A stretch of DNA of 64,000 nucleotides from an uncultured Verrucomicrobiae bacterium (GCA_963719495.1 CAVRCI010000001.1:160001-224000), one strand, 5' to 3'; shown: positions 5,963 through 26,343, counted from the stretch's first letter. Numbers and translations are program-made. The notes: generated by a model from the letters alone, not told the origin.

Positions 5963-7578
5963 TCCATCAAAATCGCAAACAAAAACCCAGCCCCCAAGCG
6001 TTCCCGAATCATCGCACCCTGAATCTCACCCCCTTCGCACCCTCGCGGCTTCGCGTGAGACCCCTCACTCCAAAAGCGCGCCGTATACCGCTCCACCCCC
6101 AACTCCGCTTCCGTCGCCACCGGCCAGGGAGTCACCGCCAACTCACCCCGCCAATCCCCCATCCCCGGATTCAACCCCGCACAAGCCGCCCAGGACTCCT
6201 CCGGAGGAATTGCCAGCACCGCCAACTGCCCAGCCAGCGTCAACCGCCCAAACGCCACAAGAGGGGTCACAAGAGGGGTCAGTCCGTTCATTGGTTCAGA
6301 ATCAAAAGGCACAAAAGGGGTCAGTCCGTTCATTGCAAAAGGGGTCACAAAAGGGGTCAGTCCGTTCATTGGTTCAGCAAAAGGGGTCGCAAAAGGGGTC
6401 AGTCCGTTCATTGGTTCAGAATTGCCGTCAATCAACCATCGCGGCGCTTCCGCCAATTCCCGCACCTCCTCCGGCAGACCCTCCCGCCACCGCGAGAAAA
6501 CCGCCCCCTGGCGCTTCGCCTCCGCCTCCAAATCCACCAACTCCGCCGCGATCCACACCTCATCGTAAGATTGCGGAAACCGAAACCCCCAGCCCTCGAG
6601 ATCCGGCATCACGTTCGGCAAACGCCGAGCCACCAGCGGCTTCCCCGCCGCCGCCGCCTCCAGATACGGCAGCCCAAACCCCTCCTGCACCGAGGTCATC
6701 ACCACCGCCTCGCAACCAGCGATCAGGTCCCCAATCTCCGGCCCATCTCCACTCGCCAACAGAGAAAACCGCACCCGCCACCCCCCCCGCTCCGCCGCAC
6801 CCATCAGCGCCCGAGCGTAACTCTCCTCCTCCCGCGAACTCACCCCCGCCGTCGTCACCAACCACCCCTCCGGCCGCAACCAACGGTGAAGCAGCACCGC
6901 TTCCGCCAAATTCTTCCGCCTCAAAAACCGAGTCGCCGCCACCCAAACCGGCCCATCATCGCCCAGCAACTCCCGCAACCAACCCGCGGAAGAACGGCCG
7001 CCACCTCGTCCTACCGCCATCACCGGATTCGGCAAAAGCAAGCTGCCCTCCACCCCCCGGGCATCCTGCCCATTGATCACCGCATGACGCAAAGCCGGCG
7101 AAAAAATCACCCGCCCCACCTCCGCCAGATCCGTGACCCCGGCCTCCGTCATTTCGGCCCACCGCCCCCACCGATTTTCGAACCAAAAGTCATGGTGATG
7201 CGACACCACCCGCCGCCCCCGCTCCGCCAGAGCCACCACCTCCCGAGCCAGCAGAAGATTCCGCCCCAACCCCAGATTGTGAACCCACACCACGCACCCC
7301 CGCTCGCAGATTCCCTCCAAATCCGGTCGCACCACCTCCCCCTGATCCGCCGAATACCCACACCCCGCAGCCACCACCACCTCCAGCGCCACGTCCCCCA
7401 GAGCCGCCCGCAACCCCGCCACCCACTCGTCCGCTCCGCCCTCGCCAACCAGCAAAGTCACCCGCCGCACCCCACCCGCCCGCGCCAGAGCCGGAAGAGC
7501 CATTTCGATCACCCGCCGCACCCCACCCGGACGCAAATGATAATGCATGACAACGAAATGGCCCGAAAACGGCTTCAT
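5959..7578 (-). CDS. GT4-like glycosyltransferase containing an in-frame tandem repeat insertion
   Basis: HYHLRPGGVRRVIE, HHHDFWFE, TRFLRRKNLAEA, TSVQEGFGLPYLEA; start placed at MKPF. Confidence 0.82.
   Translation of the reverse strand: MKPFSGHFVVMHYHLRPGGVRRVIEMALPALARAGGVRRVTLLVGEGGADEWVAGLRAALGDVALEVVVAAGCGYSADQGEVVRPDLEGICERGCVVWVHNLGLGRNLLLAREVVALAERGRRVVSHHHDFWFENRWGRWAEMTEAGVTDLAEVGRVIFSPALRHAVINGQDARGVEGSLLLPNPVMAVGRGGGRSSAGWLRELLGDDGPVWVAATRFLRRKNLAEAVLLHRWLRPEGWLVTTAGVSSREEESYARALMGAAERGGWRVRFSLLASGDGPEIGDLIAGCEAVVMTSVQEGFGLPYLEAAAAGKPLVARRLPNVMPDLEGWGFRFPQSYDEVWIAAELVDLEAEAKRQGAVFSRWREGLPEEVRELAEAPRWLIDGNSEPMNGLTPFATPFAEPMNGLTPFVTPFAMNGLTPFVPFDSEPMNGLTPLVTPLVAFGRLTLAGQLAVLAIPPEESWAACAGLNPGMGDWRGELAVTPWPVATEAELGVERYTARFWSEGSHAKPRGCEGGEIQGAMIRERLGAGFLFAILME
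6257..6423 (+). repeat. tandem array of GGGGTCAG-type repeat ends inside the glycosyltransferase
   Basis: Four copies of AGGGGTCAGTCCGTTCATTG plus three short CAA(A/G)AGGGGTC(A/G) stutters; translated as repeated (SEP)MNGLTP. Confidence 0.95.
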
Positions 7579-10066: not shown

Positions 10067-13000
10067 ATGCCTAAAGACACCACCATCCAGAAGATCCTCC
10101 TCATCGGCTCCGGCCCCATCGTCATCGGTCAGGGCTGCGAATTCGACTACTCCGGCGTCCAAGCCTGCAAAGCCCTCAAGGAAGAAGGCTACACCGTCAT
10201 CCTGGTCAACTCGAACCCGGCTACGATCATGACCGATCCCGAGTTCGCCGACCGCACCTACATCGAGCCCATCACCCCCGCCATCGTCGAAAAAATCATG
10301 GAGCGCGAGAAGCCCGACGCCCTCCTCCCCACCCTCGGCGGCCAGACCGCGCTCAACTGCGCCATGGACCTCTTCCACAACGGAGCCCTCGAACGCCACG
10401 GCGTCAAAATGATCGGAGCCAACGCCGAAGCCATCCGTCGCGGCGAAGACCGCCAGCTCTTCAAGGACATCATGGTCGAGATCGGCCTCGACATCCCCGT
10501 CTCCGGGACCGCCCACACCATGGAACGCGCCTGGGTCGTCGCCGAAGAAATCGGCCGCTACCCCCTCATCATCCGCCCCGCCTACACCCTCGGCGGCTCC
10601 GGCGGCGGCATCGCCTACAACCGCGACGAATTCGAATCCATCGTCCGCCACGGCCTCGACCTCTCCCCCACCACCGAGGTCCTCATCGAAGAATCCCTCC
10701 TCGGCTGGAAAGAGTTCGAAATGGAAGTCATCCGCGACCGCGCCGACAACTGCGTCGTCATCTGCTCCATCGAAAACTTTGATCCCATGGGCATCCACAC
10801 CGGCGACTCCATCACCGTCGCCCCCATCCAGACCCTCACCGACAAGGAATACCAGGCCATGCGCGACGCCAGTTTCCTGATCATCCGCGCCATCGGCGTC
10901 GAGACCGGCGGATCCAACATCCAGTTCAGCGTCGACCCGAAAACTGGCCGCATGATCGTCATCGAAATGAACCCCCGCGTCTCGCGCAGTTCCGCCCTCG
11001 CGTCCAAGGCCACCGGATTCCCCATCGCGAAAATCGCCGCCAAGCTCGCCGTCGGCTACACCCTGGACGAACTCCAAAACGACATCACGCGCGAAACCCC
11101 CGCCTGCTTCGAGCCCACCATCGACTACGTCGTCACGAAAATCCCCCGCTTCACCTTCGAGAAATTCCCCCGCGCCGACGCCACCCTCACCACGCAGATG
11201 AAAAGCGTCGGCGAAGCCATGGCCATCGGCCGCACCTTCAAGGAGAGTTTTCAAAAAGCCATCCGCTCCCTCGAGATCGGCCGCTTCGGCTTCGGTGCCG
11301 ACGGCAAAGACAAGCCCATCGACCCCGAAGAGCTCGACCGCCTGCTAAGAGTCCCCACGGTCGACCGAATCTTCGCCATCCAAGCCGCGTTTAGCGCGGG
11401 CTACACGGTCGACCAGGTTCACAACCTGTCCAAGATCGACCCCTGGTTCCTCCACAACCTGAAGGAGATTTCGGATTTCGGATCTCGGATTTCGGATTTG
11501 AATTCTCTCAGCTCACCCAATCCGCAATCCGCAATCCGCAATCCGCAATCGCTTTTGCGTCGCGCCAAGAAGCTCGGCTACTCCGATCGCCAACTAGCCA
11601 CACTCACGGGAGAATCCGAAGCGACCGTTCGTGAGCGACGTAAAAGCCTCGGCGTCATCCCCACCTACCGCTTGGTCGACACCTGCGCCGCCGAGTTCGA
11701 AGCCTACACCCCCTACTTCTACAGCACCTACGGCGACGAAAATGAAATCCGCCCGAGCGAAAAGAAAAAGGTCATGATCCTCGGCGGCGGCCCCAACCGC
11801 ATCGGTCAAGGCATCGAATTCGACTACTGCTGCGTCCACGCCGCCTTCGCGCTCAAGGAAGAAGGTTGGGAAACCATCATGGTCAACAGCAACCCCGAAA
11901 CGGTCTCCACCGACTACGACACCAGCGACAAACTCTTCTTCGAACCCCTCACCCTCGAAGACGTCCTCAACATCTACGAAGCCGAAAAGTGCGACGCCGC
12001 CATCGTCCAATTCGGAGGCCAGACCCCGCTCAACCTCGCCGCCGACCTCCAAGCCAACGGCTGCACCATCATCGGCACCCAACCCGCAAGCATCGAAAAA
12101 GCGGAAGACCGAAAGTTTTTCGCCGCCATGTTGGACAAACTGGGTCTCCAACAAACCCAAGGCGCCACCGCCACCACCGAAGACGAAGCCGTCAAGATCG
12201 CCACCGAAATCGGCTACCCCGTCCTAGTCCGCCCAAGTTTCGTCCTAGGCGGCCGAGCCATGGAAATCGTCTACGGCGAACAGGACCTCCGCCGCTACAT
12301 CGCCAACGCAATAGCGAGCGAAATGAACATCAGGGGGAGCGCGCCCGTCCCGGGTGCGAGTTCCGGCGTCCCCGCCGGAACCACGGCGGAGCCGTCAAAC
12401 GGGGGCGAGGGCGTCCCGCCCTCCACGACAGCCAACCCGGCAAAGCCGGCACTTTCCTCCTCCCGCCCAATCCTCATCGACCGCTTCCTCGAAGACGCCA
12501 CCGAAATCGACGTCGACTGCATAACGGACGGCATCGACTGCGTCATCGGCGGAGTCATGGAGCACATCGAGCAAGCCGGCATTCACTCCGGCGACTCAGC
12601 CTGCGTCATCCCATCATTCTCCCTTTCCTCCAAGATCCTCACCGAGATCAAAGAAGCCACCAAGTCGATGGCCAAAGAACTCCAAGTCCGCGGCCTCATG
12701 AACGTCCAGTTCGCCGTCAAAGACGAGCAACTCTACGTCATCGAAGTCAACCCGAGAGCCAGCCGCACCGCCCCGTTCGTGAGCAAAGCCATCGGCGTCC
12801 CCCTCCCCAAGCTCGCCGCCAAGATCATGGCCGGCAAGACCCTAAAGGAACTCGGCTTCCTCGAAGAAATCATCCCGCCGCACTTCAGTGTAAAGGAAGC
12901 CGTCTTCCCCTTCATCAAATTCCCCGGCACCGACATCACCCTCGGACCGGAAATGCGATCCACCGGCGAAGTCATGGGCATCGACGCCGACTTCGGCCTC

Positions 13001-13441
13001 GCCTACGCGAAAGCCCAGATGTCCGCCCAACCCGCCCTCCCCGAGAGCGGCAACGTCTTCCTCAGCGTCCGCGACAGCGACAAACCCGCCATCGTCCCGG
13101 TGGCCAAGGAATTCATTAGCCTAGGCTTCACCATCTACGCCACCGCCGGCACGGCAACGGCCCTCAACGGGGCCGGAGTGCCGACGAGCCCAATCTACCG
13201 CCTCAGCGAAGGCCGCCCGAACGTGTTGGACATGATCAAAAACGGCGACCTCCAATTCATCATCAATACGCCCAGCGGCCAGCAGCCCCGCCTGGACGAG
13301 ATCAAAATCCGCAGCGCCGCCACCGCTGCCCGCATCGCCACCATGACCACCGTAAGAGGAGCCCAAGCCTCGGTCGCCGCCATCCGTTCGCTCAAAGAGA
13401 AGCAACTCGAAGTGAAGAGCCTCCAGGAATACCACGCGTAG
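10067..13441 (+). CDS. carB: carbamoyl-phosphate synthase large subunit
   Basis: [65 protein letters not shown] and C-terminal MGS domain; two non-canonical insertions. Confidence 0.99.
11467..11550. repeat. inverted heptamer arrays inside carB
   Basis: (GATTTCG)-type x5, short spacer, then (CAATCCG)x4; encodes [28 protein letters not shown]. Confidence 0.92.
12334..12425 (+). repeat. REP-like hairpin element inserted in frame in carB
   Basis: GGGGAGCGCGCCCGTCCCGGGTGCGAG (12334-12360) is identical to 25709-25735; followed by GTTCCGGCG-TCCC-CGCCGGAAC and GAGGGCG-TCC-CGCCCTC hairpins. Confidence 0.9.
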
Positions 13442-13459
13442 GGAAAAGACAAATGCAGG

Positions 13460-13830
13460 GCCTCGCGCAAAGCCACCAAGCCGCGAAGAATACAGGAATC
13501 AATCCAAACGCCTCATGTTGAGAACTACGAACGCGCAAGCGAGTCAAAAACCCGGGGATGACTCGATCAACGGCAACGAAGCCCATTCTTCCAAATCTTT
13601 GCGACCTTTGCGGCCTTCTGTTCAAAGCCGCATTTGTATCCGCATTCCTCTTTGTTCTCTTCGTTCCCTTTTGTTCAAAACAGCCCATGTCATCGGAAGC
13701 AAAGCGAAACACCTCCGGCTTTTCAGGACTGACATGACCGCTGCCCAAGAACGAGACGTCCACATTCAGAACCGGCCCCGACAAAAACCTCGGAATCACT
13801 CTCTGAATTTCCGCGCCCCTGCGTGAGAAA
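13460..13830. repeat. intergenic cluster of short repeat remnants
   Basis: CTTTGCGACCTTTGCGGCCTTCTGTTCAAA (like 2136-2165), TCTTTGTTCTCTTCGTTCCCTTTTGTTCAAAA, and TGTCATCGGAAGCAAAGCGAAACA (like 28021). Confidence 0.7.
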
Positions 13831-13841
13831 ATCAGGCCACC

Positions 13842-14382
13842 ATGCTCTCTGAACTCGATATCGTCCGCGACGTCTCCACGAAGCTAAGCGCGACCGGTAT
13901 TGAATAAATGCTCACCAGCTCGATGGCGATGAACTACTACGCCGAGCCGCGCATGACCCGGGACATCGACATCGTCGTCGCGCTCGTCCCGTCAAACGCG
14001 ACGACCATCGTCCGCTTGTTCGATCCGGACTACTACGTCTCGCCCGACGCCGTCGCCGAATCCATTCGCGACGAGTGGATGTTCAATCTGATCCACAACG
14101 AGAGCGTCATCAAAGTGGACTGCATCGTCCGGAAATCGACACCCTACCGCCGCGAAGAATTCCAACGACGCCGACAAATCACCGCCACCGACTTCTAAAC
14201 GTGGATCGTCAGCAAAGAGGACCTCAATCCTCTTTAAACTCGCGTGGGCTAAAGATTCGAAATCCGACCGCCGGCTTCAGGATGTCCGAAACCTCATCGC
14301 CAGCGGATACGATGACTCAATCACCAAACGCTGGGCGCAACCGCTCGGTGTCGATAGCCTTTGGCGATCATGCCTGAGCTGA
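13842..14382 (+). pseudogene. nucleotidyltransferase pseudogene
   Basis: MLSELDIVRDVSTKLSATGIE*MLTSSMAMNYYAEPRMTRDIDIVV...DF*TWIVSKEDL[+1]ILFKLAWAKDSKSDRRLQDVRNL; TAA at 13905 and 14196, frameshift near 14226. Confidence 0.85.
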
Positions 14383-14627
14383 GCGACACCCCGCCCGAGA
14401 TCGCCGCCATGGTCCGCGAGCGACTGATGGCCCGCTCCGGAGCCGAGAGGTTCGAAATGGGCTCCCGAATGTTCGACGCCGCCCGTCAGATGGTCCTCGC
14501 GTCGTTTCCGACGGACATATCCGAGGAACGCCGTCGCCAACTCCTCTTCGGGCGCATCCACGGGAAGTCATTGGCCTCGACGCAAGTTCCCGGCAGCCAC
14601 CCATACCAGCCAAATGTGTCAATATGA
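14370..14627 (+). CDS. small helical protein, typical partner of such nucleotidyltransferases
   Basis: SDTPPEIAAMVRERLMARSGAERFEMGSRMFDAAR...; overlaps the NTase stop; its own stop lies in a GGGGTC-type repeat. Confidence 0.65.
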   Translation: MPELSDTPPEIAAMVRERLMARSGAERFEMGSRMFDAARQMVLASFPTDISEERRRQLLFGRIHGKSLASTQVPGSHPYQPNVSI

Positions 14628-14643
14628 ATGACCGACCCCTTTC
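14613..14643 (-). repeat. GGGGTCGG-type inverted repeat
   Basis: AATGTGTCAATATGAATGACCGACCCCTTTC, exact reverse complement of 20322-20352. Confidence 0.95.
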
Positions 14644-15609
14644 CGTGCCGCTGGGCATGTTCAGCGAAAGAGACCGCTTCCAGGACGGGACCGCGTCCTC
14701 GACCGAAGTGAACCGCAGGACGCCGCTCGTGGTAAAGTCGCCCCGTTGCACTTGGCCGCTCAAACCAACGTGAGCAACGCTCCCGGTCTCCCCGGAGAGC
14801 TCGATCACCCTTGCCTCCACCCGGGGGGCAACGAGCGAACCTCCGCCGAGCGCGAAACTGGCAGAGCCGATCACCGTGACGTTCTCGCCGAGCGTGACCT
14901 GCGCCCGGCCGTTTCGACCCAGATCGACGGAGAAGTCCCCGGTCTGGATCGCGCCATCCACCCGGACCTTCGAATCACCATCGGCCCGGATCCCGACCGA
15001 ACCGAGCGAGAACCAGCTAGACTCTGGCTCGTCGACAAAACTCACGAGCGAGCCCGCGAGCTGAACGTTGCTGGGACCGCCGCCCCGGAAGTCGAGGTCG
15101 ATCGTGGGCGACCGGATGTTGCCCGTGACCGCCATCGATGATCGTGCGTTCAGTCGCACGGCGAATGGGGACGAGAGGTCGCCACTCAAGCGGACGGGGC
15201 CGTCGGTCGAGATCTCGAGCCCATCGCCCGAGATGGAGGCCTTGAAGTCGAGGCCTCCTTCGTCTCGGTGGCCCAACTCGACGAATCCCCCCGGGGCAAT
15301 CTGTAGTTCCGTTCCCCGTCGACCGAACTCGAGGACATTCTGCTGACTGTAGACCGCCAGCGAACGAAGCGTCAAAGCGGCGGGGAGATCGATCACGGGC
15401 CGAGGCTCGTGCCGCGACGGAAAAACCCCGACGAAGGCGTCGGCGGTCGGGCCGTTCGGGACGGGGCCAAACCATTTCGCTGGCTCGTTCCACTCTCCCC
15501 CGCCGGAGGGCCGCCACGTCGAGTTCTGGGCGTAGGCGCCGATGGAGCCGACCAGTGCGACGACGAAAAAAACAACGTGACGCAAACTTCGGGAACGGAT
15601 GATCGGCAT
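14644..15609 (-). pseudogene. 3'-truncated secreted autotransporter-passenger-like protein
   Basis: Signal peptide (HVVFFVVALVGSIGAYA-Q), then STWRPSGGGEWNEPAKWFGPVPNG and Gly-rich beta strands. The frame runs into the repeat (ERGRSFILTH) and continues to 14368 only as non-homologous readthrough. Confidence 0.6.
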
Positions 15610-15769
15610 ATCTTGGAAGCAACCCCGTGGTCTCACACGAGACCCTTCGATGCAACCCAAATCGCGTCCGAAGTCGGAATCGCGACCGAAGATTGGCCCC
15701 GCGCCCGCGCGCGGCTTCACACCGAGGTCAGGCGGCGACCTTGGCTGGAGGTGGTGATCCTACCCAACA

Positions 15770-16012
15770 GGAGGGGTCGAGGAGGGGTCGGTCATTCATA
15801 TGGGCAAGGAGGGGTCGGTCATTCATATGGGCATATCGAGAGGCTATATCTGTGATCCATTGCGAGGCAAATGTGTCAATATGAATGATCGACCCCTTCC
15901 GACGACGTCACACCAATTATCGAAAATGTGTCAATGTGAAGGACCGACCCTTTTGACGCCATTCATGATCGACCCCTTCCCTGACCGACCCCTCCCCGAG
16001 CCCTTCCCCCTT
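15770..16012. repeat. cluster of GGGGTCGG-type repeats forming a MITE/REPIN-like hairpin with stuttered ends
   Basis: GGAGGGGTCG(GTCATTCATATGGGCA) x3 (15770-15836) facing AAATGTGTCAATATGAATGATCGACCCC (15869-15896); further copies at 15924-15954 and 15965-15993. Confidence 0.92.
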
Positions 16013-16096
16013 CACACCGGGGAGAGATGGGAAGTCGTGAGAATCGATGCGCCGATGCCTTGACGGTATGAGAAGACTTCGATCAAATCAGTTTCG

Positions 16097-19000
16097 GTGA
16101 AAATTATCGCTCGAGGACATGAGGCGCTTACAAATCTTTCTTGGAAGCGAAAAAGTTCCCATAAAAATCAGAGCAGTTTGGGAATCCTATCGACTTCTTC
16201 GTGCAGGTGTTGGGTTTTCGCGCTGGTGTTCGCTCTGGTTGGAGTAAGTCCTGAAACCGGACTGGGGGAGGCTAAGACCGTTTCCGCAGGATATGGGCAG
16301 TCGCACTCTCTGTTCATCAAAGCTGATGGGACTCTCTGGGGGATGGGATCTAATGGGCGCGGTCAACTCGGTATCGAATCCGCTGCCGATCAGCATTCTC
16401 CTATTCTGATATCAGAAAATGTTTCGGCAGTTTCTGCCGGACATTATTACACCTGCTTTATCAAAACCGATGGAACGCTTTGGGGATGCGGAGCGAATGA
16501 ATCCGGTCAGCTGGGAGATGGCACTTTGGAGGATAGGTTAGTGCCGGTATTGGTCGCGACCGATGTGGTGTGTGTGGAGACACTTGAATTCAACACATTC
16601 TTCATCAAATCTGATGGCACCCTGTGGGCTCATGGCAGAAATTCCTATGGAGAGTTGGGTGACGGAGCATCGAGTAATCAATCAACTCCAATCCTCATTG
16701 CGTCTGATGTGCTGTCTGTCGCCCAGGGAGGGAATAGCTTTTACGGTCCTTACGTCCTATTTATCAAATCTGACTCCACGCTCTGGATGATGGGAGCCAG
16801 CTTTTTTCCGGGTCAGTTTGGAGACGGTTCAATGCGACAAAGGCCCGAGTTGGTGACAATTGATGTTAAATCTGTTTCGGCAGGGGGCGAGCACTCGGCA
16901 ATTTTGAAGACTGACGGCTCGCTTTGGACGGTGGGTGCAAACTATTATGGTCAGCTCGGGGATGGGACGTTGACTCGCCGGACATCGCCTACGCTCATAG
17001 CGACTGGCGTAGCGTCTGTCTCAGCCGGAGGATTGGTAACGTTTTTTGTTAAGAATGATGGGACGCTCTGGGCGGCAGGACCTTATGACGTAGAAAATAC
17101 GCTGGATTTTTATTATGGCAGTCTGGAACCCAATCCCAACTTGCGGATGGTAGCGTCGGATGTCTTATCCGTCAGCGCAAGAGATCCGTATTTCTTCATC
17201 AAAACCGACGGACGATTGTTCGGTATGGGCCATAACTGGCGTGGCAAACTTGGAGACGGCACGACCACTTTTCGATCGACTCCGGTCCTCATTACCGGAA
17301 GTGTTTTAACTAACTCGCGCCGTGCCACCGTCGCGAGCGTAACGCCCAATCCTGCCCCGCTTCAAAACGCCAAACAACTCGTCACCATCACCGGCAGCGG
17401 CTTCGAGCCGGATTGCGGCGTCACTCTCCGCGACCATCGCGCGGGAATTGTGTATCCGAACCGGACGAAGATTTCGCAGACCGGGGACACGGAGATTGTT
17501 CTGAATCCGAACTTCGGCGCGATCCCCGCGCAGTGGAGTGTCGAGGTGATCAATCCGGACGGGCAATCTTCGGGCGTCCACCGCTTTCAGGTTGGTCAGC
17601 CGGTTGTTCCCGGCGACACCATCCAATCGTTTCAGATTGTTGCGGCTGACGCCGCCTCGTCGGCGGTCGGCACGGGGGATTTCAAGCTGGCGACCACGTC
17701 CGCCTCGGCATCGAGTCTGCCGTCGAGGGTCTTTCGAGCCATCGCGACATTCTTCGATGGGTCCATCGCCGATCTCACCAACAGTTCGAGCTGGAGAGTG
17801 ACGGGGGATAGCCGGGCAAGCGTGGATCATGGGACGGTGAGTCTGGGGCCGGGCGCATATGCGACTTCTCTGAACTTGTCGGCGAGTTTTCAGGGAAGTG
17901 ATGGCGGACTGTATGCGACCCGGGAGGTGACGGTGGTCCCGCCGTTCGTCGTCGGAATCTCCTCGGAGATTGGCGAATTTATTCAGACGAACGTGACGTT
18001 TTACGCCACATCGCCCGGCGTGAGCGGGTCGGCCGTGTCGCATGCTTGGACCCGCGATGGGGTTGTCCAGTTTGGCAGTTCCGACTCCATCAACTTGAAT
18101 CTGACAACCGGTCGGGAATATCTGATTGGAGTCACGGCAGCCGACCGGGATGGGCGTGAGGACAGCGACTACATCTATTTCTCGCTGAACCGCACGGCGT
18201 TGCTCGAGCCGACCACCAGCCTCGCGGTCAACCCGAAAGAGGGATCGCTTTTGGACTCCAACGAGTCTGTTGCGCTATTTAACAGCACCGCGAAGAAGGC
18301 GCGCGGTGTGGCTGTGATCATCCATGGACTGACCGATACGGCGTTCACCCAAATTCCCAATGAGTTGGCTTGGCCGGCGCGGATGGCGAAAGCCATCGAG
18401 GCGCGACTGAGCGGCTCGGTTCCCTACGTCGTGATGTATGACTGGAGCAATATGGCGAATCCGAACCGTTTCCGAGGGGGGGACCGGGGTTTCGGCATAC
18501 TTCCTGATACGGTGGGAGGCTATCTCGACAACATCCTGTCAATCCGAGCCTACGGTCTTGCCCAGGGAAAGGTGCTCGCTGATTTGCTGATCGACGCCGC
18601 CGAGGAGGGTCAACTCGACCGGACAAAGCCGGTGCATTTGATCGGTCACAGCGCGGGCGGCTTCGTAGCAGGCGAATGTGGATTGGGTCTGAAGAGAGCG
18701 GGTTTCAGCAAAGTGCAGGTGACGATGCTGGATACGCCAGCGGCGGACGAAAAGCCGTTTCGGAGTCGAGGGTCCGGGTTTCGTTTGGAACGCTACATCG
18801 CCTGTCAGTTCAGCGGGGCTCCCCCGAATTACCCGCCGACGTTGTATCGCACGATTGGGGCAAACAAACTAGAAGTTTGGAACCGCGATTTTGAGAGCTA
18901 TCGGCGCGATATTTCGAACTCGAGTGGGAATTCGACTCCCGCGTTTGCACAATATTCGCTCGATTTGAAGCTCGCGCCGGATTCCTTCTACCATCGCTAC

Positions 19001-20026
19001 GTGATCGATATCGGATCATCGAACTTTCTGGAGCAGCACAGCTACGCGCACGAGTGGTATACAGCGTCAATCGGAGAGTCGAAGCCCCAAGAGGCTGGGG
19101 GATTTGATTACTCGTTGTTTCTCCGCGATGCCGATTTTCCCGGAGCTGTTGTTGGTCAATCTTTGAAGACGGCGTTTGCTGATGGAGAAGGCTCGGTGTC
19201 GCTGAGTTTGGCTGCACCGCTGACGCCGCTCATGGGCTTCATGACGTTCGGACAGGTGACGGAATCGGGAGAGATTTTTACGCTCACCGAAGAATCGAAC
19301 TCCGGCGTCTTTTTGGATACGACGCTTCCGGCGGAGGTGGAATCCCTGCTTATCACCTACAAGTGGCGGAACATCGGGGATGGCGATTTCCTCAGCGTCC
19401 ATTGGAACGACGAACCGCCGTTGGCGGTCATTCCAGCCGTGAGGGCGGAGGCGCACACGGAGATCGAGTTCGAAGTTCCTCTCGCCTCCTACGCTGGCCA
19501 GACGGGGCGGCTGACGGTCAAGTTAATCTCGCGTAATGAGCGGAACGCGGAGGTTGAGTTGAGCGGGCTGATGTTTCAGACGAGTGACGATGCGGATGGC
19601 GATGGGCTCTCCGCTGCCGAGGAGGAAGCTCACGGGACCGATCCGCAGAAGCCCGACAGCGACGGTGACGAGCTGCCGGACAACGTCGAAATTTTAACCA
19701 CTCTCACGGACCCGCTTTCTCCGGATACCGACGGTGACGGGTCGTCGGACTACGACGAACTGATGGCCGAGACGGATCCGCGATCAGCCGCGTCGGTGCT
19801 GCGCATCACGTCGTTTTCCAGAGTGACTCCTAATCGAACCGAGGTTCGCTGGTCATCGGTCCCCGGCAAGAGCTACCGGGTGCTGCGAGGCGATAGTCCG
19901 CGTGGAGGCACGTATCGGGTGATCGGGCGGGAACTGGCTGCGACGGGCGGTGAGATGATCTTTAGCGATGACACGTCTGACGCTGCAGAACGCGGCTTTT
20001 ATTGGGTCGAATTGGAGCCGTTTTGA
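16097..20026 (+). CDS. large secreted multidomain protein: RCC1 repeats, IPT/Ig-like domains, alpha/beta-hydrolase, Ca-binding DxDxDG repeats, Verrucomicrobia-type C-terminal domain
   Basis: Repeated (F/I)KxDGTLW.G.N..GQLGDG; VTITGSGF (IPT); IIHGLTD...HLIGHSAGG...LDTP...HSYAH; DADGDGL/DSDGDEL/DTDGDG; ends WSSVPGKSYRV...GFYWVELEPF. Start codon uncertain. Confidence 0.85.
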   Translation: MKIIARGHEALTNLSWKRKSSHKNQSSLGILSTSSCRCWVFALVFALVGVSPETGLGEAKTVSAGYGQSHSLFIKADGTLWGMGSNGRGQLGIESAADQHSPILISENVSAVSAGHYYTCFIKTDGTLWGCGANESGQLGDGTLEDRLVPVLVATDVVCVETLEFNTFFIKSDGTLWAHGRNSYGELGDGASSNQSTPILIASDVLSVAQGGNSFYGPYVLFIKSDSTLWMMGASFFPGQFGDGSMRQRPELVTIDVKSVSAGGEHSAILKTDGSLWTVGANYYGQLGDGTLTRRTSPTLIATGVASVSAGGLVTFFVKNDGTLWAAGPYDVENTLDFYYGSLEPNPNLRMVASDVLSVSARDPYFFIKTDGRLFGMGHNWRGKLGDGTTTFRSTPVLITGSVLTNSRRATVASVTPNPAPLQNAKQLVTITGSGFEPDCGVTLRDHRAGIVYPNRTKISQTGDTEIVLNPNFGAIPAQWSVEVINPDGQSSGVHRFQVGQPVVPGDTIQSFQIVAADAASSAVGTGDFKLATTSASASSLPSRVFRAIATFFDGSIADLTNSSSWRVTGDSRASVDHGTVSLGPGAYATSLNLSASFQGSDGGLYATREVTVVPPFVVGISSEIGEFIQTNVTFYATSPGVSGSAVSHAWTRDGVVQFGSSDSINLNLTTGREYLIGVTAADRDGREDSDYIYFSLNRTALLEPTTSLAVNPKEGSLLDSNESVALFNSTAKKARGVAVIIHGLTDTAFTQIPNELAWPARMAKAIEARLSGSVPYVVMYDWSNMANPNRFRGGDRGFGILPDTVGGYLDNILSIRAYGLAQGKVLADLLIDAAEEGQLDRTKPVHLIGHSAGGFVAGECGLGLKRAGFSKVQVTMLDTPAADEKPFRSRGSGFRLERYIACQFSGAPPNYPPTLYRTIGANKLEVWNRDFESYRRDISNSSGNSTPAFAQYSLDLKLAPDSFYHRYVIDIGSSNFLEQHSYAHEWYTASIGESKPQEAGGFDYSLFLRDADFPGAVVGQSLKTAFADGEGSVSLSLAAPLTPLMGFMTFGQVTESGEIFTLTEESNSGVFLDTTLPAEVESLLITYKWRNIGDGDFLSVHWNDEPPLAVIPAVRAEAHTEIEFEVPLASYAGQTGRLTVKLISRNERNAEVELSGLMFQTSDDADGDGLSAAEEEAHGTDPQKPDSDGDELPDNVEILTTLTDPLSPDTDGDGSSDYDELMAETDPRSAASVLRITSFSRVTPNRTEVRWSSVPGKSYRVLRGDSPRGGTYRVIGRELAATGGEMIFSDDTSDAAERGFYWVELEPF

Positions 20027-20080
20027 AGCGGAACCGGGGCCGGGAGTATTGGCGCTGCCGCACGGTTTCCTGGAAGAGAA

Positions 20081-20133
20081 GGGCCGGGAATGGGGTCAGG
20101 GCCGGGAATGGGGTCAGGGTTCAACTCTTGACA
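20081..20133 (+). repeat. stuttered GGGGTCAG-type repeat end
   Basis: GGGCCGGGAATGGGGTCA x2 followed by GGGTTCAACTCTTGACA. Confidence 0.85.
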
Positions 20134-20139
20134 GATTGC

Positions 20140-20290
20140 GACGGAATAGCCCGATCAAACACCGGGATCTTCCCGACACTCTCACGCGCGAACGCCTTTT
20201 CGCCCTCGAGCCGACGCACCTACTTTCGGCCTGCAACGCTGTCTACCTTGAACTCACCGACCGCTTCCGGTGTCCTCTAATTACGGCAGC
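20140..20290 (+). pseudogene. degenerate PIN/VapC-like toxin fragment
   Basis: RERLFALEPTHLLSACNAVYLELTDRFRCPLITA resembles the VapC C-terminal L(S/T)xYDAxYxxLA...PLxTxD motif with the acidic residues lost; no start. Confidence 0.5.
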
Positions 20291-20305
20291 CTCAAAACCC
20301 CGGCA

Positions 20306-20497
20306 ATGGGGGTCAGGGCAAGAAAGGGGTCGGTCATTCATATTGACACATTCAAGACTGAGGTCAGGCGTCAATTTCTCCCGGTGGGACGATGGAAGAA
20401 GGATAAGTCATTCATTTTGACGTATTTCCCCTTCGCGGATTGGAGATCGAGCCCGTCGATATGCTCAGATGAATGATCGTCTCTTGCTCGACCCCTT
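20306..20497. repeat. GGGGTC-type repeat cluster
   Basis: ATGGGGGTCAGGG, GAAAGGGGTCGGTCATTCATATTGACACATT (20322-20352), degenerate GTCATTCATTTTGACGT, and inverted ATATGCTCAGATGAATGATCG...CGACCCCTT. Confidence 0.85.
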
Positions 20498-20611
20498 CTC
20501 CGTGACTCTGGTGGCCGGTGCCCGGCTGAAGCAGCGAAATCCCCGCAAGGTCGAGCCGCGTCCGGCCAATCCTCGAGCCTTCGGCGGAGCGAACCCACTT
20601 TTGACCGAACG

Positions 20612-21844
20612 TCAGGCCGTCCGGTCAATGCGCATCGGCACCCACCGTACGTAGGTCCCCATCCTCCAGAACCATTCCATCGGACCGTAGCGGAAAATCC
20701 TCAGCCACCACCCCGACCACATCAATTGCAGGCCCACAATTCCTCCCGCCACGGCCATCGTAGTACCGACCCCCATCGTGCCGTAATACCCCAGCCCGTA
20801 GCTGTAGAACACCCACCCTGCCACGAGGCTTTGGAGCAAGTAATTCGTCAACGCAGTCCGCCCCACTGCCGCCACCGCGTGAACGCCCCGACCGCCGCGA
20901 GTTCCCCAATGCATCAGCCCCACCAGATAGCACCACGCAAGAGCCGTCGCAGCGGGAAACCCGACCAAGCAATAGACCGCCCACCACACCCTTGAATCTG
21001 GTCGGAAGGTCGAACCCCACGCCGCTATCGCGCTTCCAATGATGGCCAGAGCGAGCAGGCGCCCCAGCCCCCACTGCTTCCACTCGCTTCCATCGGGGAA
21101 CCAGCCCGTTCGCACCGCGTCATACCCCAAGACCACCAAGCCCAGAGAGAACGGCCAGAAGACGATCGTCATCCCCTGCATGACGAGCGCTTCAAAAAAC
21201 CGAACGACGACGATCTCGCCAAAGTCGCCAGCCCGATAGGCCTCGTCCAACTTCTCAATCTGTTCACCGATGAACTGATCGAATTCGGGATCTTCCTCAG
21301 AGGGGATTGCCGCCATCGCCGCCAGCCCAAGCACGACGAGCACCAGACACGCCCCCGCCAGAACCCGTCGCCCCCCGGCACCCAGCTTGCGGACCAACAG
21401 CAACGCCAACCCCAACGAAGCGTATGCGCACAAAATGTCTCCCCACCACAAAAACACCATGTGCACGAGACCAATGAGAAACAGCACGACCATCCGCCGA
21501 ACAACCAATCGCCTGATATTCCCGCCCGCCGCCGCCAACCGATCCTCCTGCCACGCCAAGCCCGCACCTAAAAAAAACGCCAAGATCGTCACGCACTTGC
21601 CGACAACCACCACCTCGAGCGCAAAACTCAACCCCAGCACAACTCCCAATGACTGCTTCGGTGGCTCACTCAGAAACGCCAGATAAAAGTCACTCGAAGC
21701 GAATCCCTGGATATTGGCGAAGATCAACCCCAGCACCGCCGCGCCGCGCGCGACGTCCACCCCCACCCGTCGAGTCCCCGCAGGCACCGGCATCACCTCC
21801 GGCAACGGAGGCGGCAACGAATCCGTTCCATCGTTTTCTCTCAT
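20612..21844 (-). CDS. DUF418 (YeiB-like) membrane protein
   Basis: DVARGAAVLGL, RRMVVLFLIGLVH...WWGDIL, VGRTALTNYLLQS, FRYGPMEWFWR. Confidence 0.9.
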   Translation of the reverse strand: MRENDGTDSLPPPLPEVMPVPAGTRRVGVDVARGAAVLGLIFANIQGFASSDFYLAFLSEPPKQSLGVVLGLSFALEVVVVGKCVTILAFFLGAGLAWQEDRLAAAGGNIRRLVVRRMVVLFLIGLVHMVFLWWGDILCAYASLGLALLLVRKLGAGGRRVLAGACLVLVVLGLAAMAAIPSEEDPEFDQFIGEQIEKLDEAYRAGDFGEIVVVRFFEALVMQGMTIVFWPFSLGLVVLGYDAVRTGWFPDGSEWKQWGLGRLLALAIIGSAIAAWGSTFRPDSRVWWAVYCLVGFPAATALAWCYLVGLMHWGTRGGRGVHAVAAVGRTALTNYLLQSLVAGWVFYSYGLGYYGTMGVGTTMAVAGGIVGLQLMWSGWWLRIFRYGPMEWFWRMGTYVRWVPMRIDRTA

Positions 21845-21947
21845 CAGTTTGAACTCCGTGATCGCTTCTCCCGTTCCTTCACCCTACGACGCTCCGCTCT
21901 CAAAACGGTATCCAATTCCGCATTCCGCAACTTATCAGATTGCAATT

Positions 21948-23080
21948 GGGGTCAGTGTGCAAAAACGAATTCTCAGTCCCCGGCATCTATGCGATGCACC
22001 CACTGGACAAATTCTTCCGGCACCTTGCGCAACCCATTCGCTGAATCCGAAATTCGAAGCTGCTGACCTGCGTTGGCCGCGCTTTTCATTTCCAGTCGAT
22101 CCGCGATCCACCCCAACGACGCCGTCGTCCGCTGGCGAATGACTCGCGCCAACTCCACTTTGCGCGGATCACTCCCCATGATCCCACGAAGATCCTCCTC
22201 ACGGAGGCCCGCCGCCCGAAGCCCCCCTTCCGCCAGTTCTTCCGCCTGCTGCAACCCATGAGCCAGCCGCTGGGGAGTGCGCTGGTAGGCTCGCGAGGCT
22301 GGCTTGTCCACCTTGCCCTCCAGCATCTTCCTCAATCTCTCCGCAAACGCTTCACTTCCCCAATACCATCCCCGGCGCAAATGACTCATTCGCGCATCGA
22401 AGTGCTCCGGCACCGCAACCAACCCACTTTCCTTCTTCTCCTGCAAACCCCGCCGGTCCAAGTGCTCCACCATCTCGCGCCGACCGGCCACCGTGTCCGA
22501 ATGCCCCAACCTTCTCAACCCGTCAGCGGCAGCAAGCCACTTTGGGCGATTCATCGGTTCCAAAGCGTACCCTCCAGCCACGCTGCTCCAGCGGTAATCG
22601 AGAACGCTGCCACCCGATTCGATCTTCACAAGACCCGCTCGAATCGGGTTGAGGTGAATGTAATCCAGTACCTTGCCGTAGTATCCAACCTCATCCCCGT
22701 CGATAATCACTGACTTATAGCGATCCCCAAAGACACGACCCCACACGCGATGCCGCAGGTTGAACCTTCGCGTATAAGTATTTTGAACCCACTTCATACC
22801 CTCCACCAGGTTCGGCTCCGGCGTCTCGATCAACAGGTGGTAGTGATTACCCATCAACACCCAACCGTGAATCCCCCATCCGGTCCGCCCACAGACTTCC
22901 GAAATCACCTCGAGGAAGAATCGACGATCATCGTCGTCCTCGAAAATTGCCTCCCGCCGGTTACCACGTGCCATCACGTGATAAAACGCGCCCGCGTATT
23001 CCAATCTCAAACTCCTCGCCACCCGCTAAACAAAGACCGCAAGACGGTATACGGTCAATTGCTTTTTGCACACTGACCCC
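21948..23080 (-). mobile_element. Y1 HUH (RAYT-like) element bounded by 18-bp perfect inverted repeats
   Basis: GGGGTCAGTGTGCAAAAA (21948-21965) and TTTTTGCACACTGACCCC (23063-23080) tightly bracket the transposase ORF; the right end is followed by a duplicated CTGACCCCCTTTTCC. Confidence 0.88.
21973..23022 (-). CDS. REP-associated tyrosine transposase-like Y1 HUH endonuclease with C-terminal HTH-like region
   Basis: YHVMARGNRREAIF, VLMGNHYHLL (HUH), YIHLNP (catalytic Tyr), YRWSS; C-terminal SLGWIADRLEM. Confidence 0.93.
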   Translation of the reverse strand: MARSLRLEYAGAFYHVMARGNRREAIFEDDDDRRFFLEVISEVCGRTGWGIHGWVLMGNHYHLLIETPEPNLVEGMKWVQNTYTRRFNLRHRVWGRVFGDRYKSVIIDGDEVGYYGKVLDYIHLNPIRAGLVKIESGGSVLDYRWSSVAGGYALEPMNRPKWLAAADGLRRLGHSDTVAGRREMVEHLDRRGLQEKKESGLVAVPEHFDARMSHLRRGWYWGSEAFAERLRKMLEGKVDKPASRAYQRTPQRLAHGLQQAEELAEGGLRAAGLREEDLRGIMGSDPRKVELARVIRQRTTASLGWIADRLEMKSAANAGQQLRISDSANGLRKVPEEFVQWVHRIDAGD

Positions 23081-25250
23081 CTTTTCCCTGACCCCCTTTT
23101 CCCTCGACCAACCACGCAATATCGTTCGCGTCCAACACCGCCCACCGGTCCGAAGCCAAATGCCAGATGTCTTTTGTCTGGAGGCGATCGTCATTCAGCA
23201 CGCACTTCGCGAATACTCGGCGCATCTCGACGTTCTGAAGCGCCCGACCGACTACCGACCGGTCCGAATCAGTGGCAAAAGGCAGATAGTTCCGACTCTT
23301 CGAAAGCCACACCTCGACCGCGAGAGCCGCAATCTCCGGCACGTCGAGATGATCCAGAGCCTTCGCGAACGCTTGCCCGGCCAATTCCTCCCGGCAATTC
23401 AGCGAATCGAAACAATGCGTCCACTCGATGCACTTCCGGAGCAGAGGGACGAGGTCTTCCGTCCGCACGTGCCGCGGTAGAAGATCAGACAGCACGCGCC
23501 GGTAACTCCCGAAATAGTTGTTTGCTCGCAGAGCGTGGATCGCTGGAAGCGCGTCACTCACGGACCAAATCGTCGGGACCAAACGCGCGAGAGCATCGCC
23601 TCGGATGGAATCTTGCGGATCGTTGCCCACGGTCCCTTCAGCCAGCGGAATCAACTCCGCGAGTCGCTCCTCCGGAACACTTGCGCAAAGAGCATCCGCC
23701 GCAGCTTCGCGAATTTGCTGCGATTCGTCCGAATCGCGCAAAACCTCGAAGTAGTCATCGCAGAGCTCAGGGATCTGACACGCCTCAGCGATGTCGAACG
23801 CGACACGACGCGCGATGATCCCATCCGACCGACTGCGCAAAACCGGATGGATTTGCTCGGCCAATCCAGGATGCGACAACCGTTTGTAAAAAGAGCGATA
23901 CTGCCCGTCGTCGAAAATTTCCTCGCGGCGGGCGCCAGCAAGAATTGCGTCCACCAACTCGCGCTTAAACTCGCCGTTGATTCGCGCGATGTCACTGCGC
24001 AACAGAATCTCTGGTTCGATTTGGAGGAGGTGACGTAAAAAATCCGCGTGGCCTCCCGCAATCCACGCTGCCAACTCGGCCAATTGGGGTGCCACGTGTT
24101 CTCGACCGGCATCCCGTCGACAAAGGAGTCGACGAAGCTGAACGGTGGGAAGCTGAACAAGCCGCAGGGCAGCCAGGCACTCCGCAACCGTTTGATGAAT
24201 AAAGACAAACCGTCCCTCCCCCACGCCGGTGAAAAGGGCTGTTTCGACCACATGGCTCTGAGCAGCCTCAACAACAAGCTCGCGGGAGAACGATTCATCG
24301 TCCAGAAGCCCGTCAAGTCTCACGACTGACCGGCCACTCAGCAGCATCACTGCAGCAAGATTGGCAGCGGACATCAGGCGCTCATCCTCCGTGGGGATGG
24401 CCATCGTCTTACTTCTGCGCCGAGTCAGGCTGGCTCGTTCCAGACTATGCTCGGCATTCAGACGACGCACGGCACTTTCGTAAAGCTCGCGGTGTGACCA
24501 GTCCGTCACCGATCCCGATTGAAATTCTTTCAACAAAAACGACAGCGTCAGCGGTCGTGCCGCCATCGGAGCGACCTGCGCACGATACGCCGCTTCAACG
24601 AACTCATCCGCATTGATCTCAAACGACTCCGCTGCGCTCCTCGCGTCAACCTGCCGAAGAGGGCAGAGCTCCGGGACCAAACGGTCTTGAGGATCTATTT
24701 TCCAAAGATCGAAAAACTCTGATTCCGCCGTGACCGGCCACTCGGCGATTCGGCAGGCCAGCACAACTTTCAGCCGAGCAACCGGGTATCCGCGTAAGTC
24801 GGCAGTAAGCGATTCCACCAACTTGGGTGCTTGGATCATCCCTTCGTCGACGCTGTCGACGAAAAGAGTCGCTGTTTCAGACTCATTGCCAACCCAACGG
24901 TGCCACGAAGGACTTCCAAAGACTTGGTGCCGGAAATCTGCGTAGTCGACGATCTTCAATAGGTTTGCTTCGACGACGATGTCACCACGTTTCTCGTGAG
25001 CCTCGCGAAGTCGCTGCAACTCTGTTGACTTGCCCATCGCCGGCTCGCCGCAGAGAACGATGGGAGCCGTTTCGAACAGCAGCGCGTCCGTGGCACGCAG
25101 GTGTTGGTTAGCTTGAGTCCAAACAGAATCCGACTCCGGATCATCAAGGAAGGCTTCACCGAATCCGCATGAGATGCTTTCCCCACGACGGCACCAGAAC
25201 CGCCGCCAATTTAGAGGTTCTCCGGAAAATAAACGATAATCGGTAGGCAT
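23055..25250 (-). pseudogene. NACHT/STAND-like NTPase with helical repeats, apparently 3'-truncated by the RAYT element
   Basis: Walker A CGEPAMGKST, Walker B LFVDSVDE, LACR, RPLTL, FIHQTVAECLAA, HEAT-like region; last residues (GKGGQGKGGQCAKSN) are translated repeat. Confidence 0.75.
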
Positions 25251-25320
25251 ATCCGGGAAGCGGGAAATCGTTCGGTGGAGTTACCACTATTCCAATCAAC
25301 TCTGTCCATCCCGTAGAGGC

Positions 25321-25645
25321 CTCGATCTCGGCTACAACCGGAAACCGGTCGCCTTCACCGGCGACCCCACAACCAACACCCGCCTCGTCCCCGAGATCCG
25401 CGTCCTCTGGCAGCACGAATTCTTCAACAACAGCCGCAACATCGGCAGCGCGCTTGACGCCCGGATCCGGTCCCGGCTTCAACACCAGCACCTCCTAGCC
25501 CGGCCGCGACAGCGTCTTCGCGGGAGCCGGCGTCAGCACCCAACTCGGCGACCGCTGGAATGCCAGCGTCTATTACAACGCCGACTTCGGTCGCCAGGAC
25601 CTCACCAGCCACAGCGTCAGCGCCAGCCTCGGCTGGAAGTTTTAG
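25321..25645 (+). pseudogene. autotransporter beta-barrel C-terminal remnant
   Basis: LVPEIRVLWQHEFFNNSRNIGSALDA[frameshift]GSGPGFNTSTS*PGRDSVFAGAGVSTQLGDRWNASVYYNADFGRQDLTSHSVSASLGWKF; terminal aromatic beta-signal. Not in the ORF track. Confidence 0.8.
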
Positions 25646-25708
25646 GGTCGAGCTGGCATCGCTGCCCGGCGCAAACTTGATCGCCCAAACCGACCAAGCT
25701 CATTGCCC

Positions 25709-25756
25709 GGGGAGCGCGCCCGTCCCGGGTGCGAGCGACGGCGTCCCGCCGAAGCT
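25709..25756 (+). repeat. double-hairpin REP-like element
   Basis: 27-bp identity with the carB insertion, followed by CGGCG-TCC-CGCCG. Confidence 0.85.
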
Positions 25757-25779
25757 CCGGGCGGCAGCCGGTCAGCCCG

Positions 25780-26343
25780 CTAAAGCTCGAGAAAATTCCC
25801 CAGCAATCGCTTCCCCTCCGAAGTCAGGATCGACTCCGGATGAAACTGCACGCCATACACCGGCAGATCCTTGTGCCGCAACCCCATGATCTCGCCTTCC
25901 GCCGTCTCGGCGGTGATCTCCAGGCAATCCGGCAGCGTCTCCCGCCGCACGAGCAACGAGTGATACCGCGTCGCCTCGAACGGCTCCGGCAATCCCGCAA
26001 AGACGTCCGTCCCCCGGTGTTGGATCGGCGACGTCTTGCCGTGCATCAACCGCTCCGCCCGCACGACCTCACCGCCGTAAACGTCCCCAATGCACTGGTG
26101 CCCAAGACACACACCGAGCAACGGCACCTTCCCCCCGAACTCCCGAATCACGTCGTTACTGATCCCCGCCTCCTGCGGCGTGCGCGGACCCGGCGACACG
26201 CAGATCCGCTCCGGCCCCATCGCCGCGATCTCGTCGATCGTGATCTCGTCATTCCGCCGCACGACCGGCCCCGCCCCCAACTCGCCGAAATACTGAACCA
26301 AGTTGTAAGTGAACGAGTCGTAATTATCGATAATGAGAATCAT
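25780..26343 (-). CDS. trpG: anthranilate/aminodeoxychorismate synthase component II
   Basis: True start [44 protein letters not shown]; overlaps the trpE stop. Confidence 0.95.

Follow-up and report, generated by a model that had tools for sequence, protein, structure and literature searches.

TIRtron ends beside whole and cut genes in a patchwork island between carB and trpG of an uncultured Verrucomicrobiae bacterium

TIRtrons, which are bounded by terminal inverted repeats (TIRs), and their HUH enzymes, the TIRYTs, were named by Di Nocera et al. (2013; PMC3733652), and TIRYT was equated with TnpA-Y1 subclass 2.1 (Quentin et al., 2018; PMC6006769) and RAYT group 1 (Bertels et al., 2017; PMC5581495). 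Subclass 2.1 is the second largest Y1 subclass and is present in 14.9% of strains (PMC6006769), while its substrate and reaction are still to be assigned in the literature seen. Cleavage by HUH enzymes yields a 5'-phosphotyrosine together with a 3'-OH, and the adduct is resolved when an oligonucleotide with a 3'-OH is added (PMC8266576). Here we describe an island of genes, gene pieces and repeats around a TIRYT-like gene at positions 13842-25645 of a 64,000-nt stretch of DNA (the window; G000 C1:160001-224000) from an uncultured Verrucomicrobiae bacterium, with carB (10067-13441) on one side and trpG/trpE on the other. G000 is the genome under study (4.54 Mb in 16 contigs, C1 being a 419-kb contig), G001-G005 are related genomes, and L numbers denote loci compared; named homologs point to Verrucomicrobiota. 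The initial annotation took the island for an integron-like array without an integrase, in which GGGGTC repeats act as recombination sites. The feature is real and the kind of element is known by name, while its reaction signature is undescribed and testable: neither a paper on how TIRYTs work nor a description of any of the traits set out below (cut position, carried linker, strand bias, multi-enzyme islands) was found in the literature searched, which was seen in part and mostly without subscription journals and supplements. We lean, though not strongly, towards reading the island as TIRtron scar tissue, in which TIRs of three families have been joined by their outer ends to whole and cut genes, and the nick would fall about 5 nt outside the TIR.

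GGGGTC-led repeats are present where they had been placed before (14613-14643, 15773-15992, 20092/20110, 20309/20326/20490, 21948, and 23075/23090). The bare GGGGTC hexamer, which occurs at chance (70 matches vs 67.5 ± 8.3 in shuffles), was ruled out as a signal for lack of enrichment. The island repeats are 17-31 nt long, and 14613-14643 and 20322-20352 are 100% complementary over 31 nt. Clustering of all GGGGTC sites gave several repeat families. Six full-length relatives of the local HUH gene occur in G000, each within its own TIR pair, and these pairs fall into five TIR families; TIR sequence tracks enzyme clade in a tree of 38 intact proteins from G000 and the fetched loci. Family A has 13 sites in the genome, family C 42 and family E 47, and there are others. 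The family A core, GGGGTCAG, agrees with the published TIRtron consensus, and family C carries GGGGTCGG, one base away from it (PMC3733652). Three of the families make up the island repeats: family A, that of the local enzyme, only at 21948 and 23080; family C at 14.6, 15.8-16.0, and 20.3-20.5 kb, with its cognate enzyme at G000 C13:310543; and family B at 20.1 kb and, as a partial copy, at 20309, with its cognate enzyme at G000 C9:55206. The claim that the motif bracketing the HUH gene is that of the island at large holds for 21948 and 23080 only, the other repeats belonging to enzymes encoded elsewhere. Single TIRs form no hairpins, folding no better than shuffled sequence (z of 0.15 to 0.53 in four of five tested and -1.8 in the fifth), and no Rfam match was found within 13400-26000. 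In addition, many TIR families hold TTGAC(A) at +19 to +23 (e.g., window 20344-20349), an inward -35-like box that is also half of a GTCA...TGAC dyad; a sigma-70 promoter scan 5' of the local TIRYT gene gave no site.

A whole-genome survey of sites within two mismatches of 10 family cores yielded 152 TIRs and 125 independent outer junctions, and each junction was tested for an unbroken homolog of its outer flank in the same genome that ends at most 60 nt away. Such a homolog was found for 45 of the 125, and 21 of these 45 break 3-7 nt outside GGGG, vs 13 of the 81 ends of this kind that were found at 1500 control (non-TIR) GGGGTC sites (Fisher p 3e-4). All four outer ends of the island with a testable homolog break 4-7 nt from GGGG, and the linker letters in between are foreign to the cut gene. 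Linkers are 72% purine and of 70 kinds among the 125 junctions. They are common to sister copies of miniature inverted-repeat transposable elements (MITEs) at four sites, and there is no fixed dinucleotide at the cut. No target duplication was seen: the linker was rejected as a target-site duplication because the unbroken homologs continue with other letters. It was likewise rejected as an untemplated addition made at each event, being identical in 68 of 109 outermost tandem units and nine of 12 long duplications. The 45 classified junctions comprise 25 distal ones, 19 direct ones within 30 kb, and one inverted at 10 kb; fold-back (inverted) junctions, a candidate class, accounted for none of them. 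The TIRs are clustered, 104 of the 125 junctions having another 0.2-10 kb off vs 51 expected, and there are joints between a TIR of one family and a partial TIR from a different one. The earlier view of the repeats as recombination sites thus holds insofar as breakpoints at repeats join unrelated DNA; the boundary itself is shifted by about 5 nt, and most repeats of the island have their enzyme at another locus. The expected enrichment of the repeats at truncated genes was weak (16/125 outer vs 7/125 inner sides, p 0.08), as scored with a crude codon measure of gene cutting that is 59% sensitive at random positions.

Duplications at the TIRs tell of the same offset. Many TIRs carry stacked tandem units made of linker plus partial TIR, and the tandem copies span 9 nt to 1.2 kb. 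Our set of 109 distinct outermost units was drawn from G000 and from loci chosen for holding TIRs or TIRYT genes; 68 of them are clean. In all but one of these 68 the flank that was copied measures 4 nt or more (67 of 68), with a mode of 5; its usual length is 4-5 nt in family C, 5 in E, 5-9 in A, and 9-11 in F. A flank of 4-7 nt fits 49 of the 68 vs 35.3 expected under uniform placement (P 1.5e-4). Microhomology is at most 1 nt in 45 of the 68, which argues against slippage, and no common motif precedes the joint in either the junctions or the tandem units. A comparison of 150 pairs of neighbouring TIRs with the same direction turned up 24 entries for long TIR-anchored duplications. Of these, 12 are distinct and have a clean end, with units of 78-1177 nt, and nine of the 12 repeat the last five linker letters of the upstream TIR. 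Like units also occur beside TIRYT genes of other families in the class (four clean TIR units at 28 loci). Separately from the island, a second TIR cluster, of family E and with stacked 12-42-nt units of linker plus partial TIR, lies upstream of carB (window 6263-6420, plus strand).

The TIRs are also biased between the strands. Solo TIRs have GGGG on the C-rich strand in 48 cases and on the G-rich strand in 17, with island majorities of 25 vs 4 (p 1e-4), opposite to the background hexamers, 602 of 791 of which are on the G-rich strand; three other GGGGTC-led repeats show no strand bias. Paired TIR ends are evenly split, as they have to be, and solo ends outnumber paired ones. If the G-rich strand is taken as the leading one, as is established, the strand with GGGG would be synthesised in Okazaki fragments, and the one with GACCCC would serve as their template. 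An abundant REP-like repeat of a different kind, found genome-wide, follows trpG (window 25703-25762); its 13-nt core is on the G-rich strand in 57 of 57 cases, while another GGGGAC-led repeat is biased the opposite way (42 vs 7).

The local TIRYT gene (21973-23022, minus strand) encodes 349 amino acids with H60-Y61-H62 and the catalytic Y121 in Y-x-x-x-N-P. The sole family match of the protein is to Y1_Tnp of Pfam (E 2.7e-11); it stays below cut-off for the canonical RAYT model NF047646 (62 bits vs 80) and the IS200 model NF033573 (19.8 bits vs 55). Among 117 homologs Y61, H62, and Y121 are invariant, and H60, N125, and P126 are kept in at least 90%. The predicted structure (predicted local distance difference test, pLDDT, 87) has TnpA-REP 4ER8 as its best Foldseek match (E 9.7e-7), followed by the TnpA proteins of ISDra2 and IS608. 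Helices are predicted in the C-terminal part at 286-298, 303-310, and 315-324 (pLDDT 80-89), and this extension looks like a helix-turn-helix (HTH) domain in the model. LexA_DNA_bind matches weakly in eight of the 117 homologs, and an Atlas lead names Bac_DnaA_C on 11% of one cluster; folded alone, the C-terminal domain gave an unusable model with a pLDDT of 47. With its HUH and Y-x-x-x-N-P motifs, GGGGWSAS-type flanking TIRs, and dispersed TIR family, which are the marks of a TIRtron and its TIRYT, the gene is most probably a TIRYT (RAYT group 1, subclass 2.1), judging from length, motif, and TIR.

TIRtron A, the element around this gene, spans 21942-23102; its TIRs (21948-21971 and 23057-23080) are 92% complementary over 24 nt, with linkers outside and one 15-nt tandem unit at the right end. 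It is mobile as a unit: in G001, a sister species, two loci that are unrelated to carB or trpE each hold a 97%-identical copy ending at the same points (window 21944-23100/23102), while the carB and trpE regions of G001 are only 83% identical to the window. A match was found in 21 of 31 related genomes, G000 counted. Arrays of TIRYT 3' fragments of varied lengths, anchored at the right TIR, were observed in G000, G002, and G004 (G000 C15:2281-5105, L013:9113-15105, and L015). They resemble the C-terminal transposase fragments reported in Prochlorococcus (10.1101/2020.03.09.984088).

In the mechanism that we propose, the C-terminal HTH would bind the cognate TIR, and each enzyme would nick one strand on the 5' side of the GGGG in its own TIR, at a distance of about 5 nt (range 4-11), with Y121 forming a 5'-phosphotyrosine on the linker-GGGGTC strand. 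To judge from the enzyme family and the strand bias, the chemistry would be that of single strands. The fixed, tyrosine-linked end would then be joined to a free nascent 3' end at a variable place. If this is the 3' end of the nick itself after a short fill-in, the product would be a tandem unit of 9-58 nt, on either strand; if it is the 3' end of the lagging strand at a fork and lies inside, duplications of 0.08-1.2 kb and the TIRYT 3'-fragment arrays would follow; if it lies outside, the flank would be deleted and a gene cut; and at another TIR the arms would be swapped. Repeated rounds at one spot, together with insertion of MITEs and TIRtrons, would both build and erode the patchwork.

A number of points weigh against this account. 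More than half of the testable junctions (24/45) break beyond 3-7 nt (six at 0-2 and 18 at 9-48), some of them from other insertion sequence (IS) ends, and carry-over alone does not account for as many as 70 different linkers at 125 junctions. Among the tandem units 41 of 109 are unclean, those of at least 17 nt show a small excess only (11/22 vs 7.7 expected), and short ones at paired ends are unbiased by strand (11/25 vs 12/26). The strand bias is weaker in the relatives (27 vs 13, or 12 vs 5 by island, p 0.14), two unrelated GGGGAC-led repeats are also strand-biased (0/57 and 42/7), and the equation of G-rich with leading is applied here to unordered contigs. A duplicate of the carB 3' part and the NTase in G003 has a TIR at one end and none at its variable end. 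No Pfam HTH scored on the C-terminal part of the TIRYT, and the HTH is proposed from predicted helices and the Atlas lead. The joints are known from assemblies alone, and the enzyme from its sequence. Lastly, an identical joint would arise if the opposite strand were cut 5 nt 3' of GACCCC, and the junctions do not decide the strand.

This last point is the core of the strongest competing explanation, an IS608-like cut on the other strand with the same outcome for the island and the opposite strand polarity, which we regard as unlikely but serious. It gains from the fact that the GACCCC strand of solo TIRs is G-rich and would template the lagging strand; it is on this template that IS608 and ISDra2 act (PMC5027513). 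It also gains from the match of the catalytic domain to TnpA-REP and IS200/IS605 structures, identical junctions being expected. However, the 9-13-nt units would then require a second cut within the bound TIR and a tiny circle, the variable site shows no sequence preference whereas characterised Y1 enzymes pick their sites by guide pairing (PMC8266576), and single TIRs are not hairpins. It is more improbable that the island is a mere insertion hot spot, where whole TIRtrons and MITEs insert and host deletion, slippage, and homologous recombination do the rest with no one-ended reaction. TIRtron A does move whole, the island has point-mutated and TIR-free breaks, IS copies of the DDE type crowd the islands of relatives, a microhomology deletion removed TIRs in G004, and the gene-cutting score found an interrupted coding frame at just 16 of the 125 outer junctions. 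Host processes, though, would give neither a fixed 4-7-nt offset nor a 4-nt floor (67/68) and would require microhomology; the flanks of TIRtron A are unrelated, the missing half of the NACHT gene is not in the assembly, and solo ends are commoner than paired ones and strand-biased.

The integron-like array of the initial annotation, with TIRs as cassette sites and an array kept by the host as an adaptive gene store, is not supported, and capture of this kind now seems very unlikely to us. TIR islands at carB in four of five genomes, mostly of one polarity and with reshuffled content, the clustering of TIRs, mixed-family TIR joints, and two whole foreign-looking genes with TIR ends facing both sides would all agree with it. 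Against it, the cargo is of mixed orientation, is found outside the TIR pairs, and is about half cut (three of five genes), the TIRs form no hairpins, and neither a clean empty site nor an empty/filled cassette pair was found; moreover, the enzyme is mobile and not a resident integrase, the one integron integrase is on another contig, and G001 has no TIR island at carB. Mis-assembly at the repeats is hardly credible. No contig from a sediment sequencing run was shown to bridge an island junction, but the perfect repeats of the island are at most 31 nt long in a 419-kb contig, like junctions occur in five other assemblies, and non-target linkers are not an assembler product. The sediment run gave short contigs 95-100% identical to island pieces at depth 1-6; a candidate for the 14640>15810 joint was rejected, since it has only 27 nt on one side and looks like another MITE. 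No RNA data set was listed as containing the island.

The pieces of the island can be followed from carB to trpG. Next to carB, as its ancestral neighbour, lies an AbiEii/DUF6036-like nucleotidyltransferase (NTase) pseudogene (13842-14380, plus strand) with two in-frame stops and one 1-nt indel. Its region is 88-89% identical to the post-carB loci of G002 and G003, and neither the stop at 14196 nor the additional base at 14227 is present in a relative from run X1. The NTase label is borne out by an intact G002 ortholog that matches AbiEii, while the damage consists of point changes and not of a break caused by a repeat. A small partner open reading frame (ORF; 14361-14627, plus strand), with no Pfam or NCBIfam match, has homology in relatives to about 14569 and its stop codon within a solo family-C TIR (14613-14639, minus strand), whose outer end faces right and whose enzyme is that at C13:310543. 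G002 and G003 have a TIR at about the same place, with different DNA after each. Cut 4 nt outside this TIR are the N-terminal 322 codons of a passenger-like secreted protein (14644-15609, minus strand), 41% identical to the 1070-aa P0242 up to its last codon. Full-length homologs (~1070 aa) were missed by a word search and found by a full scan, and a full-length paralog is at G000 C2:720455-723508; the name autotransporter passenger goes back to one weak PATR match in a full-length homolog (E 0.012). An 86-bp MITE with family-C ends (15811-15896, within a region of 15768-16005) has stacked units of linker plus partial TIR outside both ends, one long stem (z -4.9), and three further genomic copies with the same 4-5-nt linkers.

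The largest gene (16097-20026, plus strand) is a 1309-aa open frame for an RCC1-repeat/IPT/alpha-beta-hydrolase/TSP3 protein, with TIR outer ends facing both sides and a GC content of 0.51 in its first kb; it was not found in five congeners. It is followed by a family-B TIR with one 18-nt tandem unit (20080-20143, plus strand; enzyme at C9:55206) and by an internal piece of vapC (20150-20301, plus strand), the 3' end of which is about 7 nt outside a partial TIR and the 5' end on the inner side of TIR-B. The VapC label holds because a relative has the intact PIN gene: the piece is 76-78% identical to intact vapC of the carB islands in G002 and G004. Next (20302-20495) come the partial TIR-B (20309), a TIR-C (20326-20352), a B2-like remnant, and a decayed inverted 86-bp MITE; the 86-bp MITE, this decayed one, and the TIRtron are what lies inside island TIR pairs, whereas four large pieces of cargo, in mixed orientation, are outside them. 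A whole gene for a DUF418 membrane protein (20612-21844, minus strand) has upstream homology to G002 that ends 7 nt before TIR-A. In G002 DUF418 is 1 Mb from carB, in a segment missing at that site in G000, G001, G003, G004, and G005; an excision of DUF418 from beside the HAD gene of G000 was considered and rejected, as the site is unbroken in these five genomes and the insertion is found only in G002.

Beyond TIRtron A, the N-terminal 716 codons of a NACHT-type protein (23103-25250, minus strand) are cut 7 nt outside TIR-A and align with residues 3-713 of a 1385-aa homolog at 53% identity; three full-length homologs as queries found no match to its C-terminal half in the assembly. The cut protein resembles the antiphage proteins EruA/HyoA, below cut-off, and its family numbers at least 144 homologs with lengths near 1400 aa, for the most part unnamed. 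An autotransporter barrel 3' remnant (25348-25645, plus strand), named after an Autotransporter ORF of G001, adjoins trpG, and its left break has no TIR. A P-loop NTPase match was also among the island gene labels in the profile search. The passenger (322 of ~1070 aa), VapC (both ends), and NACHT (716 of ~1385 aa) genes are indeed truncated, as annotated at first, and most junctions are at repeats as claimed, except that the NACHT/barrel joint (25250-25350) and the 5' end of vapC are off any TIR outer end.

In all four congeners where both were found, carB and trpE/trpG are apart (on different contigs or 450 kb distant), which places the island at a synteny break. TIR islands occur at carB in four of the five genomes examined, mostly with one TIR polarity. 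After carB in G002, G003 (two copies), and G004 a TIR points back at carB and the next TIRs mostly point away; these islands hold TIRYT 3' fragments, vapC, IS genes, and other cargo in differing order. In the comparison of carB loci proposed earlier, G002, G003, and G004 thus differ in their repeat-segmented content. The relatives are different species, and no clean empty site was present among the loci compared; G004 C3:119396 was rejected as one because the microhomology deletion there removed the TIRs too. The G003 duplicate of the carB 3' half plus NTase pair (L019; G003 C1:1942228-1944349) lies on a contig other than that of the native carB. Segments of L038:14105-16947 (G000 C2:762105-764947) are 99-100% identical to multiple copies in G005, indicating very recent exchange of mobile DNA between both species. 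Around carB we also observed an in-frame insertion of about 46 codons (window 12301-12460), present in G002 and absent from G001, G003, and G004, and a dispersed repeat of about 200 bp between carB and the NTase (window 13513-13725), with copies 85-90% identical on several contigs and absent from that site in G003 and in the run X1 relative.

The junction rule names as substrate the cognate TIR with 12 nt of its flank and predicts the position and strand of the cut, with Y121F as catalytic mutant and specificity controls from families A, C, and E. If true, it would explain the C-terminal transposase fragments reported beside prochlorosin genes, would point to one origin of the truncated genes and tandem amplifications that accessory islands contain, and would provide small orthogonal nick-and-ligate enzymes. 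More tentatively, and with doubts that prevail for the present, group-1 RAYT/TIRYT enzymes might represent a third mode of HUH mobility, in which a nickase guided by its HTH cuts outside a linear TIR at a fixed spacing and seals that end to any nascent 3' end at the fork; at least five orthogonal enzyme-TIR pairs in one genome would then form a standing, integrase-free shuffling network through which accessory genes are duplicated, deleted, and imported at fixed chromosomal spots.

Integrons and IS26-type regions hold repeat-segmented, unrelated accessory genes at a recurrent locus, and new elements arrive at old ones. The island is like them in these respects, but it has no tyrosine recombinase, attI, or attC and no DDE enzyme, and its cargo is often cut mid-gene. 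The window contains no match to the integron integrase model TIGR02249, which is over cut-off only at G000 C2:176417. With neither IntI/attI nor attC hairpins between whole, co-oriented cassettes, the island is not an integron. The integrase itself (C2:176417-177349) is preceded over 130 kb (C2:42470-174249) by seven copies of another repeat in DNA of low GC skew, possibly a large cassette array. IS91/ISCR elements are similar in outcome, being HUH systems with a fixed and a variable end that co-mobilise adjacent DNA with no target duplication; the two ends of IS91, oriIS and terIS, are distinct and not TIRs, and it has a target tetranucleotide (PMC13181058), while here either of two equal TIRs would be the fixed end. 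The enzyme here is a Y1 protein of the IS200/RAYT clade and the element lacks the characters of IS91/ISCR, so it is not an IS91 family member. It shares the Y1 fold, the absence of target duplication, and a replication-strand bias with IS200/IS605 elements such as IS608 and ISDra2 (PMC5027513), but its TIRs are symmetric and linear, asymmetric subterminal hairpins and a target tetranucleotide are absent, and one-ended deletions and duplications occur.

TnpA-REP and RAYT groups 2 and 3 are closer, providing the best-matching solved structure (4ER8), Y-x-x-x-N-P, and mini-elements with two inverted ends (PMC8266576). The present system differs from them in that the flanks are linear TIRs and not the GTAG-tagged REP hairpins of REPtrons and canonical RAYTs, there is no fixed CT cut, the offset is set by distance, the enzyme gene itself moves, and the protein has an extra C-terminal domain. 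The closest of all is the TIRtron with its TIRYT, with a Y1 HUH gene of about 350 amino acids and a C-terminal helical extension, dispersed TIRs, found singly, as dimers, or clustered, whose core is of the GGGG(A/T)(C/G)A(C/G) type, several enzymes in one genome whose TIRs differ, and some duplication and horizontal transfer. In the text seen, the published accounts (PMC3733652, PMC6006769, PMC5581495) ask for assays and describe neither a cut site nor a junction rule, and no strand bias or tie to truncated genes.

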